A stretch of 63,958 bases of DNA, counting the filler, from Thelocarpon superellum (Eukaryota), in NCBI GenBank assembly GCA_026025795.1. It is 15 parts of 15 records of this genome, joined end to end, with 100 filler letters (N's around TTAATTAATTAA, not from the genome) between each part and the next. Parts side by side here need not be neighbours in the genome. Positions count along the whole stretch, not along the records: positions 30,919 to 35,141 come from JAPEUG010000756.1; 14 more parts are not named here. One strand, given 5' to 3'. Below are positions 2,565 through 35,241 of the stretch, piece after piece; position 1 is the stretch's first letter; the number at the start of each line of letters is the position of its first letter. Below the pieces are notes generated by a model, which saw only the letters and a list, made by a program, of their open reading frames with translations, did not search any database and was not told the DNA's origin. The position numbers and the translations under genes were made by a program.

Positions 2565-4415
2565 GCTTCACGAGGTGACGGGCAAGAGCAGCAATGGCAA
2601 CGACGGTGGAGGACTTTAAACATCAGTTTTGCCTGTCGGGAGAACATCGCCAAGCCGGCGGTGAAGCAGGGTGGTGTAAAGGGCGGCATATGTCGGTGCA
2701 TATGGCATTGCCGAGGGATTGAAGTCGTTTCGTGAAAGCCGGACACGTCGGTTCCAAGGCCGGCTCCGGCGCGCGTTGAACAGTCTCAGGGAGGGGAGCA
2801 GAGATGGATCTCGTGTCGTGAACGTTCATGCTGTACCGTGGCTCGCCTGTAGAGGGATCGACAGCGGCTGAAACGATTCGGGTCGAAGGAGCCTCTTGGA
2901 CCATGTAGTGGGTTTGCTGGTCGAGCAGCGCAGGTTGGGCGGGTGGTGTTACTGGAGGTGTGGGGTTCCCAAACCAGGGAGCTACAGATCGATCGGACAG
3001 GCATGAGGCTGCATTTCGTCATGTTGCCGGGGGCGGCGTCAGTGCTGCTGGCCCGGGCTCGTCGCCGCTGGGCAGGACGATGGGTCGGGTGGCAGGTCAG
3101 GTGCCAAAAATGGCATCTGGGGCTCAACACTCCCAAGCCAGCCGCTACCCCATGTTCGCCGGCCGTATCAGCTGGAGCGGGATGGCGGGCGGGCGGTCGA
3201 AGAAGAGCAGGCCATGCAGGAGTCCGTGCGCAGCTGACAAGAGCTGTTCAGGAAACCAGGGAACGGACGCGTGAGAAACAGAGAGGGGCACCCGGCAGAC
3301 GAGAAAGGAGACGGTCGCGACGTCGCCGTGTCGCAGGATCAGCCCCTCCTTCAGGCTTCGTTCATACCATTGTTGCCCTTGTTCTCTTGGCCGACCATTA
3401 CGACAGTCAGGCGAGGATGCGTGCGGAAGTCGAGCAGCATCGAAGCATCAATGAAAGCGAACGGTGACATTGATGCGCTCTGGTATCATCTTCTCCGGCT
3501 TTTGGTGCTCGAAAGAATCGGACGGCAGTGGGCTCTGCCCATAATGGATGATGGGCGGCGTGTGAGCGGTGCATTTGACGTTCATGCACGCCTTTCAAGC
3601 CATCAAACCCGATCTTTTATGCGATTATGTTAATTGGATTGCTGTAACCCATTCGGGTACATTCAAGGCAAACACCATGCACCATATCCAGTGGGGAGGG
3701 AAGAGCGGGTGGTTTGGGTTTGGCCGCCGTCGCGGCCGTTCCGCCTTCCGACCCTGGTGCGGAAGAGCTGAGTACATGGAACGCGCTGACGACCGTGTCG
3801 GCCCGTACTTCCCCTGAGTGACTTCCTACGGCCTCAGCGCCCACTTAGGCGGACTATCTGTCATGCCTTGCTTGATCGTGTAAACTCGCCATCGCTCCGA
3901 CGAGGCCAGGCTTGGGCGACCAGGTCGCTTGGATTGTGTCAGGCATTTCCTAATTGACACCACGCCTTCGCCAGCAGATCTGATACCCCGATACCGTGTT
4001 CTCAAATGAGAAAGGACGATGCCACGCCAGGAGCAGATTCGTTCTGCCCGTTTGCCGGGGCTGGTACGCCATAGCATCGCAAATGCCGCGGATGAGATGA
4101 ACTTTCTTGCGTGGCGGATGTGATCTGCGCGATCGTCGCAATCTGCAACATGATGTCACGGATCGGCAGCGTGGCTGTTTGGTGGTTGACTGACGATAAT
4201 TGGACCTCACAATCAGTTTATTCTATGTGTTCTTGCAGCCGGTAGACACTCGTCTTCACACACCCCAACTCTTTCCTTGAACAGCAGACACTCTTCGTAA
4301 CTTAGGTAGGCAGGGACCTTTCAACTAGCTGCGTTTGGGTGACGGTGCTGATGCTGGTTAGTCTGGGCCGCGGTGTGCACGCAGACTACTACTCGTACTC
4401 ATTACTAGTGAAGAG

Positions 4416-30818: not shown

Positions 30819-31117
30819 NNNNNNNNNNNNNNNNNNNNNNNNNNNNNNNNNNNNNNNNNNNNTTAATTAATTAANNNNNNNNNNNNNNNNNNNNNNNNNN
30901 NNNNNNNNNNNNNNNNNNAAGCAATCGTCCGTACTCGATTCCCCCCCCCACCTCTGGTCGGCACCGGTAACGATGTCATACCTTCGCGCCGCACTTGTCC
31001 GATAGCTACGCGAAAATCGGCGGACAGCCTGCTCGACGTGCCCCGCCTCCGCTCGAGTTCAACAAAATCATCTCACTGCACCCCCTCGTTGGACATTCCC
31101 ACGGCCATTGGACCACC

Positions 31118-32688
31118 ATGTCGCTATCCAATAAGCTCGCCATCACCGATGTGGATCTCAAGGACAAGCGCGTCCTCATCCGCGTAAGTCGCAGCCGCGG
31201 GAGCGTGCTCGAAGTTGCGACCTCGGTCGCGGACCAAGTGTTGGCTGATCATCCCGCTCCGTGCAGGTCGACTTCAACGTCCCGCTTGATGCCGACCTCA
31301 AGGTCACCAACAACCAGCGCATCGCCGGTGCGGTTCCGACCATTAAATATGCCGTCGAGCATCATGCCAAGGCCGTCATCCTCATGTCCCACCTGGGCCG
31401 ACCGGACGGAAAGCGCGCGGCCAAATACAGCCTCAAGCCCGTGGTGCCCGAGCTGGAGAAGCTCCTCGGCCGGAAGGTCACCTTCCTTGAAGACTGCGTC
31501 GGCAAGGAGATTGAGGAGACGGTCGCAACGGCCAGCGGCGGCGAGGTCATCCTGCTCGAGAATCTACGATTCCATATCGAAGAGGAGGGCAGCGCCAAGG
31601 ATACCGAGGGCAAGAAGCATAAGGCCGACCCAGAGCAGGTGAAGCAATTCCGACAAGGATTGACGGCCTTGGGCGATGTCTATATCAGTGAGCGAGCCCG
31701 TGTCTCCGCGTGTGACTCAAGTCGTCCCCACTGACGTGCGACGGGCGGCAGATGACGCCTTCGGCACGGCCCATCGTGCCCACAGCTCCATGGTCGGCGT
31801 CGAGCTGCCGCAAAAGGCAGCGGGCTTTCTCGTCAAGAAAGAGCTCGACTACTTCGCACAGGCGCTGGAGAAGCCGCAACGACCCTTCCTGGCCATCCTG
31901 GGCGGAGCCAAAGTGTCGGACAAGATCCAGCTGATCGACAACCTGCTCACCAAGGTCGACAGCCTCATCATCTGCGGCGGCATGGCCTTCACCTTCAAGA
32001 AGACCCTGGAGAATGTCAAGATCGGCAACAGCCTGTACGACGAGGCCGGTAGCAAGACGGTCGGCGACTTGATGAGGAAGGCTGAGAAGCATGGTGTGAA
32101 GATCGTCCTTCCCGTTGATTATGTCACGGGCGACAAGTTCGCCCCAGACGCCACGACTGGCTATGCCACGGATGCAGACGGCGTGCCGGATGGCTGGATG
32201 GGGCTCGACTGCGGCGAGAAGAGCATCGCGCTGTTCAAAGAGACTATCAACGAATCCAAGACGGTTTTGTGGAATGGGTTGGTCCTTCCGCAATTGGTCG
32301 GGTGGGAGTGTTGAGACTGACCTCTTCGTCAGACCACCGGGCGTCTTCGAGATGGACGCCTTTGCCACGGGTACCAAGGCCATGCTCGACGCCGCCGTGG
32401 ATGCCGCGCAACACGGCAAGATTGTCATCATCGGCGGTGGTGACACGGCCACGGTCGCCGCCAAGTACGGCGTCGAGGATAAACTAAGTCATGTGTCCAC
32501 TGGTGGCGGGGCGTAAGTCAAGTCACGCGATCTCCGATAACTGAGTGCTGATCTCGCGTGCACCGCAGATCTCTTGAGCTCCTCGAGGGCAAGGACCTCC
32601 CAGGCGTTTCGGCGCTTTCCGTACGTCGTCTTGTAGCCTTGGCCCCTCTTTGCGCATCACTAACGTCACCGTGATCTAGAGTAAGTAG
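31118..32688 (+). CDS. PGK1: Phosphoglycerate kinase, cytosolic isoform (...ALSSK*); introns 31184-31266, 31688-31751, 32278-32332, 32513-32568, 32621-32679
   Basis: [103 protein letters not shown]. Confidence 0.98.
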
Positions 32689-32729
32689 GCTCGTGTCTCG
32701 GTCGACGACGGAGCCTGACACGGGGGAAG

Positions 32730-32749
32730 AGTACACGTCCAGACTCTGA
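32730..32749 (+). other. PGK1: Predicted alternative terminal exon of PGK1 encoding (K)YTSRL* (PTS1)
   Basis: Donor GTAAGT at 32681, branch CTGAC at 32715, acceptors AAG/GAG at 32729/32731, then TAC ACG TCC AGA CTC TGA. Confidence 0.75.
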
Positions 32750-32978
32750 AGTGTCGGCGTGTCTGGTCCTTTCGGTGGGCCCGAAAAGAAAAGTTGGGAC
32801 AGCATGGAGGAAGCATGGGCTTGCAAACGGTACCTCTGGTCTCATCCCCGAGTCAAGACGTGCCATATAGAGCGATGCCATACAAACTAGGCGTAGATGA
32901 TGATGATGGCCTTTGCTCTGGTATGATACAATCTCGTCACACGGAGAACAAGGTAGACGCGAGAAAACGAGCAATCGC

Positions 32979-33412
32979 TCATCCCCGCTTATTCGCCTCC
33001 ACCTTCTTCAGCTCTTCCCTGGACGCAGAGTCTTGTCAGCAAACCATGCACATCAACCGTCGGGACCTCCTCGAAGCGACGGGACCACGTACTTCAACTG
33101 CGCCGAGAAGTCCTCGCTGGTATCGTCATCGTCCCAGCTCTCTTCCCAGAGATGCGTATTGGTCCCCGTCACCTCCGTCTCCTCCTGGGTCCAGTCTGCG
33201 TGGACAATCAAACCATCTGCCGTCAGCCTCGCGCAGTCTCCCCGGGCGCGAACAGAAGGGACCGACGGACCTTCTGTGGGGAAATCCTCAAACTCGTCGT
33301 CTTCCTCGAGCGCCGCCGTGGGCTTCACCGCATCCTTGTTGGCCTCTGTCGCAGCGGCATCGGACGTGGCGGCCTGGGTGGCCGAAGACGACCCTTGAGC
33401 TGGGGCCGACAT
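32979..33412 (-). CDS. SEM1: Proteasome lid/TREX-2 subunit Sem1/Dss1, 2 introns
   Basis: LEEDDEFEDFPTE|DW...HLWEESWDDDDTSEDFSAQLK|EELKKVE. Confidence 0.96.
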
Positions 33413-33877
33413 GGTGGGCGGGGGATGAGCCGGTCGTTGTGGGACCCTTGGGAAGAGTTTGGTTGAAAACAATGTCGGACGAGAGGGCATCGACGGACGA
33501 TTATCGCCTTAGGCGCCGCCCTTAACTAGGAGCGTCACCGGGCGCTACGCGCGCCTTACCTTCGGGCCTCCACGGGTAGCTGGCGGGTTCCCTTCGGTAC
33601 TCGTAAGCCAGGCGACCGCAGCAAGTCTAGACGAACGAAGCATTTCGATGACGGAAGCGATAGCGATTGAGCTGATATGTTACTTAGCGCTGACTACCAT
33701 TGTGCGTCGTTGCATGGCTCCCATGTCATGAAGCAAATCCCGACGGGTCCGCCTCGTCGATCGACATATCTTCAGTGGCCAGAAAATCCCAAGAAATGAA
33801 AGCAGTCTCTTTTTTTACCTACCTTGATACAATTCCCGAAACGCCGTCCAGCCTACGGACAACACTGGCAAGCAAGC

Positions 33878-35141
33878 ATGTTTCGCATAGGATCGTGGCT
33901 TGCCGGCACAACACCCAAAGCAGAACTCTCTCCAGAAGGGTCGGATGTGCAAGACGAGACTCTGGACCGTGAGTAGCTCTCACCTCGGGATGCGGTCCTG
34001 GCGCTGATATCACTTCTCCATGGGCTAGTCAACCATGCCTTACAAGGTGAGGAAGTGGGACAGCGGGGAGCTTACCATGCCTGCCAGGTCTGATGCTTGT
34101 CACATTACTTAGGGGCCTCACATATCATGAATGATGATATCGACACGGCCCTGGCCGAGCTTAACGAACGCAAGTCGGCCTATCATCAGGTGAGGGCCCC
34201 CAGACCCGGCCGCCGTCCTCGACCACCACGTCTTGCCCCCCACCCCGGGCAAAGGACGGTGACGCTGATGGCGGTGACGGACGGCGGCAGCTCGGGAGAG
34301 GGATCGTCTTCTTCCTGCAAGCCACGCTTGGATTCGAGCAGGACGTGATGCGGCAAGGTGACGACTAGCTTCGTCCCCGGTCCATTCGTGTCGGGTGGCT
34401 GATCGGGGGCACGCCACAGCCTCGACCTACCTCGCCGAGGCCGAAGCCATGGCGTACAAGGAACACCGCCAGGCCCAGCGCGATCCCAGGCCTCCCCGCT
34501 CCTCGATCTACCCCCCCGGTGCCGAGTATGCCCTCTGCACCGCCCAAGCGCAGCTCATGAGTGCCGTCGTCGCGGTACTGAATGAGAGCTTGACCGAGAG
34601 CATCCGCGGCTTCTACAAGTTGCGAAAGGCCTATGTCACGATGGATGCGCTCATCGATGCCGAACAGAAATATCTGGCCGGACGCCCCACCACGGATAAG
34701 GCAGCGTTGCCCTTGGGCGAAAAGGAAAATCGGGACCGACAATCCAGTGATCCGACGTCGGAAGAGGCCGTCTTCGCGGGCACGCTTGACAACTTCATTC
34801 ATTCTGGGGCCAGCCTGTGTTTTGGGCTCCTCCTGATCCTGATCTCGATGATTCCCCCCGCCTTCGGGCGATTGCTCTTCATCGTTGGCTTCAAGGGCGA
34901 TCGAGAACGTGGCGTGCAGCTGCTGTGGCGGGCCTCGAACCAGGAAGACATTCACGGGGCCATGGCCGGCCTGACGCTGCTTGGCTACTACAATAGCTTG
35001 AATGGATTCTGCGACATCCTGCCCGACGAGGGGGGCGAGCAGAGTTTTGGCTATCCCAAAGAACGATGCGACGCGCTCCTCGTACGCATGCGGACCCGCT
35101 ATCCCAACAGTCGCATGTGGTTGGTTGAAGAAGCCCGGCTC
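33878..35141 (+). CDS. IML2: Iml2/TTC39-family TPR protein, 3' truncated; 18-nt microexon 34029-34046
   Basis: MFRIGSWL, HIMNDDID.A, LG.GIVFFLQATLGFEQDVM, IYPPGAEYALC.AQAQLMSAVVAVLNESLTESIRGFYKLRKAY, FIHSGASLCFG..SMIPPAF.RLL.IVGFKGDRERG. Confidence 0.9.
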
Positions 35142-35241
35142 NNNNNNNNNNNNNNNNNNNNNNNNNNNNNNNNNNNNNNNNNNNNTTAATTAATTAANNN
35201 NNNNNNNNNNNNNNNNNNNNNNNNNNNNNNNNNNNNNNNNN

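Follow-up and report, generated by a model that had tools for sequence, protein, structure and literature searches.

Can a peroxisomal form of phosphoglycerate kinase (PGK) be produced by way of an exon of a single nucleotide? The question is raised by the PGK gene of Thelocarpon superellum, at the 3' end of which two introns lie one base apart and a downstream reading ends in Ser-Arg-Leu (SRL). Dual targeting of glycolytic enzymes to the cytosol and to peroxisomes through hidden signals is established and has been little mapped. In 2012, Freitag, Ast and Bolker (Nature 485:522) reportedly traced the cryptic peroxisomal targeting signal (PTS1) of Aspergillus nidulans PGK to differential splicing, and that of Ustilago maydis Pgk1 to stop-codon read-through.

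The 3' end of the Thelocarpon PGK gene

The window analyzed, a stretch of 63,958 nucleotides, is made of about 15 contigs of about 4.2-4.4 kb each, arranged by descending length and joined by 14 linkers within 4416-60553. A linker reads N44, TTAATTAATTAA, N44, as at 30819-30918 and 35142-35241, on either side of the PGK contig. Because the linkers are artificial, gene neighborhood across them is meaningless; the PGK contig, which comes from a metagenome bin, extends from 30919 to 35141 only (4223 nt). The Myb and TMLH genes, cited in a preliminary description of this DNA for their AAG acceptors, are on contigs other than this one. PGK was modeled on the plus strand with exons at 31118-31183 (ATG at 31118), 31267-31687, 31752-32277, 32333-32512 and 32569-32620, the fourth being flanked by introns at protein positions q338 and q398 and the fifth ending in GCG CTT TCC (ALS). 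When intron A is removed, the 417-residue product agrees in every letter with protein P0002 ('MAG: phosphoglycerate kinase [Thelocarpon superellum]'), exon 3 being 100% identical to it, and PF00162 was listed for every match of the homology search made with exon 3. This identifies the gene as the cytosolic PGK ortholog of a Thelocarpon-type lichen fungus. Further along the contig are a DSS1/SEM1 family gene on the minus strand (33056-33508, E = 1.2e-17), convergent with the 3' end of PGK, and an Iml2/TTC39 gene fragment on the plus strand (34365-35141, E = 6.9e-60), which runs off the contig end. No overlapping gene was found on the minus strand over the 3' region of interest, where the sole open reading frame, of 113 aa, is unsupported.

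Intron A (32621-32679, plus strand) is 59 nt long and in phase 0; it opens with the donor GTACGT, has CTAAC at 32660-32664 and closes with a TAG acceptor. It is followed by A-GTAAGTAG, which reads AGT AAG TAG (32680-32688, plus strand), the Ser-Lys-stop of the cytosolic isoform, and which from 32681 is also a perfect GTAAGT donor. SK directly follows ...LS in 147 of the 188 PGK relatives of the protein set, so that removal of intron A is required for the normal C-terminus of the enzyme; judged by this comparison, intron A is constitutive and necessary for the conserved ALSSK-stop end. The donor that overlaps the stop codon opens the alternative intron B (32681-32729, plus strand, 49 nt), with CTGAC at 32715-32719, the branch A at 32718, and an AAG acceptor. 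The tail exon beyond it (32730-32749, plus strand) reads AG TAC ACG TCC AGA CTC TGA, the stop codon lying at 32747-32749. Nucleotide A32680 is flanked by two complete introns (TAG/A/GTAAGT, with CTAAC on one side and CTGAC on the other). In the cytosolic mRNA it opens the terminal exon; by sequence and arithmetic, it is also a putative 1-nt internal exon of the PTS1 mRNA, since together with the tail exon it reads K-Y-T-S-R-L-stop.

Several C-termini can be read from this arrangement. Splicing of intron A to 32679 gives the cytosolic end, ...VSALSSK-stop. Removal of both introns with A32680 kept gives ...VSALSKYTSRL-stop: excision of intron B deletes the normal stop and appends KYTSRL, the last three residues of which fit the pattern [SAC][KRH][LM] in silico. 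A second AG at 32730-32731 (plus strand), a GAG acceptor, matches donor A in phase, and its use would yield ...VSALSYTSRL-stop. The AAG acceptor at 32729 leads into the tail in frame only when A32680 is kept, and its direct joining to donor A yields a frameshifted, non-PTS1 tail of 49 residues after ...ALS. Retention of intron A gives a further C-terminal reading (20 residues, not shown). The coordinates and motifs of both introns and the three tail readings proposed in the preliminary description all hold on re-reading, and the sequence does contain two complete introns back to back, separated by a single base.

Two other ways to a PTS1 were rejected. Read-through of the TAG stop keeps the frame open until TGA at 32716-32718 and ends in ...DGA, which is no PTS1. 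A GAG acceptor at 32713, which would give PDTGEEYTSRL, lacks a branch site in the interval from the TAG at 32679 to 32713. A second AG also occurs two bases past the acceptor of intron A (TAGAG, 32677-32681) and mirrors the AAGAG at intron B; if used, it would lead to ...ALS-stop.

An alternative intron over the stop codon in related fungi

A search for related loci matched 579 stretches (534 relatives), and 80 loci were kept. With one locus left out for want of the anchor motif, three because they ended too early and one because it had <120 nt downstream, 3' ends were compared in 75 loci plus Thelocarpon PGK (64 after dereplication); class labels follow the best match to named proteins. In most of the compared loci the codons after ...LS are a contiguous AGT AAG TAR, and the donor A/GTAAGT overlaps the stop codon. 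We scored a tail when an AG located 35-90 nt downstream led, within 12 residues or fewer, to a PTS1-like end, and compared the true phase with two control phases. Among the 38 dereplicated loci with GTAAGT at +1, the true phase (phase 1) gave a short PTS1-like tail in 27, of which 12 are canonical ([SAC][KRH][LM]), vs 11/38 and 13/38 (4 and 5 canonical) for the control phases, which are not fully independent. Under the same rule, a PTS1-like tail is absent from 11/38 GTAAGT loci. An in-phase AAG acceptor was found in all tail-giving loci (27/27) and was the sole kind of acceptor in 20 of them. In the same loci, 68 unique constitutive introns of PGK use CAG (42), TAG (17) or AAG (9) as acceptor, and none uses GAG. 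The terminal Ser codon is AGT in 40/45 dereplicated loci ending in S-K-stop (AGTAAG in 39/45), whereas elsewhere in these PGK genes AGT accounts for 160/1483 Ser codons (10.8%); this bias points to selection that acts on the donor rather than on the protein. The alternative intron of the relatives is 43-79 nt long with an AAG acceptor, and leads to tails that include RRAARL, STSSKL, SQKARL, SISPRL, NHSRKSSL and SRMRSSSL. By these features, intron B of Thelocarpon (49 nt, GTAAGT, CTGAC, AAG, K-YTSRL) matches the pattern exactly. That this donor recurs in relatives together with an AAG acceptor and a PTS1-like tail, and does so more often in the true phase than in the control phases, is more than chance would give; on this comparison, the SRL tail represents a cryptic PTS1 module that is conserved in the PGK of several classes of Pezizomycotina.

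Tails of this kind are found in annotated proteins. Leotiomycete PGK annotations carry NRPSKSSL (Cadophora), RSSGKSSL (Rhynchosporium), SRYKSSL (Tricladium) and SRPSKSSL (Drepanopeziza), and two more annotated PGK proteins end in EKSKL and SKL. The coding sequence is intronless in 16 loci, and most cDNA-like contigs keep intron B, which corresponds to the cytosolic form. One sample series looks like metatranscriptome assemblies, since L053 and L057 repeat the sequence of L044 with introns, which L044 itself lacks. Contig L075, also cDNA-like, reads ...ALSSSRSKL-stop, as expected for A/GT joined to a tail exon. Its genomic counterpart was searched for among the loci and not found, so that L075 is suggestive of use of the module rather than proof of it; the tail could instead be constitutive and not alternatively spliced. 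Because intron B recurs across relatives and its tails are annotated, the cryptic PTS1 itself would be the already known Aspergillus-type mechanism, and the module of the Pezizomycotina relatives is most likely that of A. nidulans PGK. The preliminary reading of the SRL tail as a cryptic PTS1, of the kind that fungal PGK acquires by splicing, is borne out by the module in 27/38 loci, by the AGT bias and by the annotated tails. Likewise, to the question of whether the SRL-stop is conserved, the answer is that the tail module recurs in relatives well above the level of the control phases.

Some loci depart from the common form. The Umbilicaria-like L005, L006, L008 and L009 (at about 3256-3330 in each) carry AGTAAGTAAGGT, with two overlapping donors, and of the two only the +5 donor (GTAAGG) leads to a canonical tail, SSKNTAKL, by way of an ATGAG acceptor; where the donor of the module lies thus differs from lineage to lineage. 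Elsewhere (L012, L015, L026, L044, L049, L070 and L071) a donor lies five bases into Ser-Lys (AA/GT) and, with a downstream acceptor, would turn ...SSK-stop into ...SSKL-stop, a canonical SKL at the cost of one added residue. A transcript-like protein, P0178, ends in ...ALSSKL. In L025 (865-905) the stop TGA is followed by CTC and by an in-frame extension, LASGKL-stop, which may represent a PTS1 gained by read-through rather than by splicing. The Sordariomycete-like loci L045, L056, L058, L060, L066, L077 and L078 end in ...ER[KSQ]-stop, not SSK-stop. Several Sordariomycete-like loci still have a GTAAG-type donor over the stop codon, and among these Sordariomycete-like loci only L078 has a canonical tail under the tail rule (ERKSRL).

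Age of intron A and routes to the SRL tail

That PGK can gain a cryptic PTS1 through alternative splicing is already known; by the comparison made here, the unusual part is the intron at the A position. Three of the 80 loci kept from 534 relatives have an intron there (L038, L052 and L054, all from Tuber-like Pezizomycetes), at the same codon and in the same phase, and among the 80 loci these three are likewise the only ones to share with Thelocarpon the introns at protein positions 338 and 398. Their exon 3 is 91% identical to that of Tuber magnatum PGK, and in a quick ML tree with SH-aLRT support they group with Tuber (SH-aLRT 100). Thelocarpon PGK is placed apart from Tuber, weakly with Sclerophora and Piccolia (SH-aLRT 92) and near Candelaria and Pycnora. 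With three intron positions common to distant lineages, ancient retention together with repeated loss of 3' introns is simpler than three parallel gains. Intron A is thus probably an ancient intron that was retained, and not, as had been supposed in the preliminary description, one that was gained. Annotated C-termini from Sphaerosporella (P0149), Geopyxis (P0154) and Candelaria (P0021) continue ...ALS-VS..., V-S being GTAAGT translated. As protein models, these annotations hint at an unrecognized A-position intron, and hence at more carriers.

After the A-position intron, the Tuber-like loci read AGC AAG TGA or AAC AAA TGA, and the GTAAGT donor and the PTS1 tail are absent from L038, L052 and L054. 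No relative with both an A-position intron and intron B was found among the 80 loci kept, so that the two-step route has no comparative example in this set. Since the A-position intron appears to be ancient and intron B is common to the sampled Leotiomyceta classes, A and B have probably coexisted for long in this lineage. Thelocarpon PGK nonetheless keeps every element of the module intact (donor B, branch site, AAG acceptor and canonical SRL); the chance persistence of AGT-AAG, calculated from observed codon frequencies, is about 0.1. Had intron A instead been gained recently and in parallel, the module might be intact only because there has been too little time for its decay.

We incline, if only slightly, to the reading that PGK carries the conserved cryptic PTS1 module and that the PTS1 isoform is made by sequential splicing around a one-base exon. 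Intron B would be a short, deliberately weak alternative intron, with the donor A/GTAAGT written into the Ser-Lys-stop and with an AAG acceptor, and its excision would remove the stop codon and add a few residues ending in the peroxisomal targeting tripeptide SRL. Most transcripts would lose only intron A and encode the cytosolic ...ALSSK. A minority would be spliced twice. In the order that we infer, A would be removed first, recreating the ...TCN-A/GTAAGT context that is native to the unspliced RNA of relatives: the junction formed reads ...TCC-A/GTAAGT, vs ...TCG-A/GTAAGT in the relatives themselves. Intron B would then be removed at low frequency, which would make A32680 a one-base exon and give ...ALSKYTSRL, a product presumably imported into peroxisomes. 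Were B removed first, TAG-A-AG would become a TAGAAG tandem acceptor for intron A, and either KYTSRL or YTSRL would be produced, both in frame. More tentatively, and with doubt somewhat outweighing belief, we suggest that peroxisomal PGK arises through an alternatively used 1-nt exon in which history has a part: the ancient intron A and the cryptic-PTS1 intron B would have stood one base apart since before the Leotiomyceta radiation, the cryptic PTS1 would thus have arisen back-to-back with A, and most lineages would later have lost the upstream intron.

The in-frame SRL tail is also reached by a direct splice from donor A (32621) to 32731, through the distal CTGAC (32715) and the GAG acceptor. 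This would give ...ALSYTSRL with donor B unused, and would dispense with the unusual exon; the intron removed would be 111 nt long, with its branch A 13 nt from the acceptor. However, past the distal branch site an AG is first reached two bases earlier, in the AAG at 32729, and joining donor A to it shifts the frame. Moreover, GAG serves as acceptor in 0/68 constitutive PGK introns of the relatives, and it is because the direct route requires such an acceptor that we favor routes through intron B and the one-base exon. The direct splice would also leave the kept GTAAGT, with its AGT codon, unexplained, and we consider it quite improbable. The preliminary description had stressed that AAGAG offers a correct phase to each donor. 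Arithmetically this is true, but AAG/AG is present too in L001, a locus with no A-position intron, so that the double phase need not be an adaptation and, given the GAG count, is probably incidental.

It is also conceivable, though in our view unlikely, that intron A blocks donor B. Only the 32620/32680 junction, followed by unspliced AGTAAGTAG, would then occur, the protein would end in ...ALSSK, and SRL would be an undecayed leftover. The Tuber-like loci, which have the A-position intron with neither donor B nor a PTS1 tail, indicate that a state free of the module is viable; yet these loci carry AGC or AAC at the terminal Ser codon, whereas Thelocarpon has kept the donor hexamer, CTGAC, the AAG acceptor, the phase and a canonical SRL-stop, even as the tail has diverged from that of the nearest locus among the 80 kept, L001 (KHVEALTSL). 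A dead module should have decayed if intron A is ancient. That the SRL-stop and the splice-like motifs are merely coincidental 3'-UTR sequence is hard to credit. Short motifs are common, and the control phases yield PTS1-like tails as well (11/38 and 13/38 loci), but the same geometry with AAG acceptors is found in 27/38 relatives, the AGT codon bias is strong and the tails are annotated in public proteins. Differential splicing of A. nidulans PGK is, in addition, experimentally shown according to a review (PMC3798809).

Thelocarpon PGK among known systems

In a literature search that reached few subscription journals, no description was found of a one-base exon or a back-to-back intron pair for PGK. 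If the sequential route is true, A32680 would be the third reported one-base exon, by the count in PMC12940212; within the literature searched, it would also be without precedent as an optional exon and as one that switches the compartment of a protein. With a constitutive intron one base ahead of donor B, Thelocarpon PGK offers a natural test of two abilities of a fungal spliceosome: splicing again at a newly formed exon junction, and using a one-base exon optionally. The PGK module is kept at the nucleotide level across several filamentous ascomycete classes, and a donor in Ser-Lys-stop combined with a deliberately poor AAG acceptor would be a simple annotation rule for finding the isoform. 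Confirmation would tie micro-exons and recursive splicing to the control of organelle targeting, and would give a structural reason why gene finders overlook such isoforms.

The peroxisomal isoform of A. nidulans PGK arises by differential splicing, as stated in two reviews (PMC3798809 and PMC12316961). As far as these describe it, the likeness to Thelocarpon is in the enzyme and in a minor, C-terminally extended PTS1 isoform that depends on alternative splicing at the 3' end. Unlike A. nidulans PGK as it appears in the reviews, the Thelocarpon gene has a constitutive intron with its 3' end one base short of the alternative donor, and its PTS1 mRNA would need two splicing events around a one-base exon, or else the GAG acceptor. 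For U. maydis Pgk1, PMC9549241 and PMC12316961 describe a PTS1 reached through stop-codon read-through. The enzyme and the dual cytosol/peroxisome logic are the same; unlike there, read-through of the Thelocarpon TAG ends in ...DGA and hence is not the route here.

Single-nucleotide exons have been described elsewhere. For that of Arabidopsis APC11, the authors proposed sequential removal of the introns, with intron definition and recursion (PMC4674806). The one-base exon of CYP621A in Fusarium, also a Pezizomycotina fungus, is spliced, with SRA read support (PMC12940212), which shows that a Pezizomycotina spliceosome is capable of one-base exon splicing. Thelocarpon PGK shares with both genes the AG/N/GT layout and two complete flanking introns. 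In contrast, the exons of APC11 and CYP621A are constitutive, lie inside conserved domains and are backed by cDNA or SRA reads, whereas A32680 is a putative internal exon in a minor alternative isoform only.

The preliminary description had also taken the layout to imply recursive- or stwintron-like splicing. Stwintrons of Pezizomycotina involve consecutive splicing of abutting or nested introns (PMC5587772). The fungal group is the same, and intron positions offset by one base are a recurrent feature there too. In the strict sense the term does not apply: the internal intron of a stwintron must interrupt the donor, branch site or acceptor of the external one, and here the genomic sequence has each of GTAAGT, CTGAC and AAG of intron B uninterrupted, and intron A ends one base upstream of the donor G. 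Nor is the genomic AAGAG a NAGNAG tandem acceptor, as its spacing is two bases and not three; the TAGAAG tandem would exist only after removal of intron B. Drosophila ratchet points are zero-nucleotide recursive splice sites. Like them, the Thelocarpon layout has a 3' splice site that abuts a 5' splice site and would involve re-splicing at the new junction. Unlike them, it keeps one base and has introns of about 50-60 nt rather than tens of kilobases, and its second step would be optional and would alter the end of the protein.
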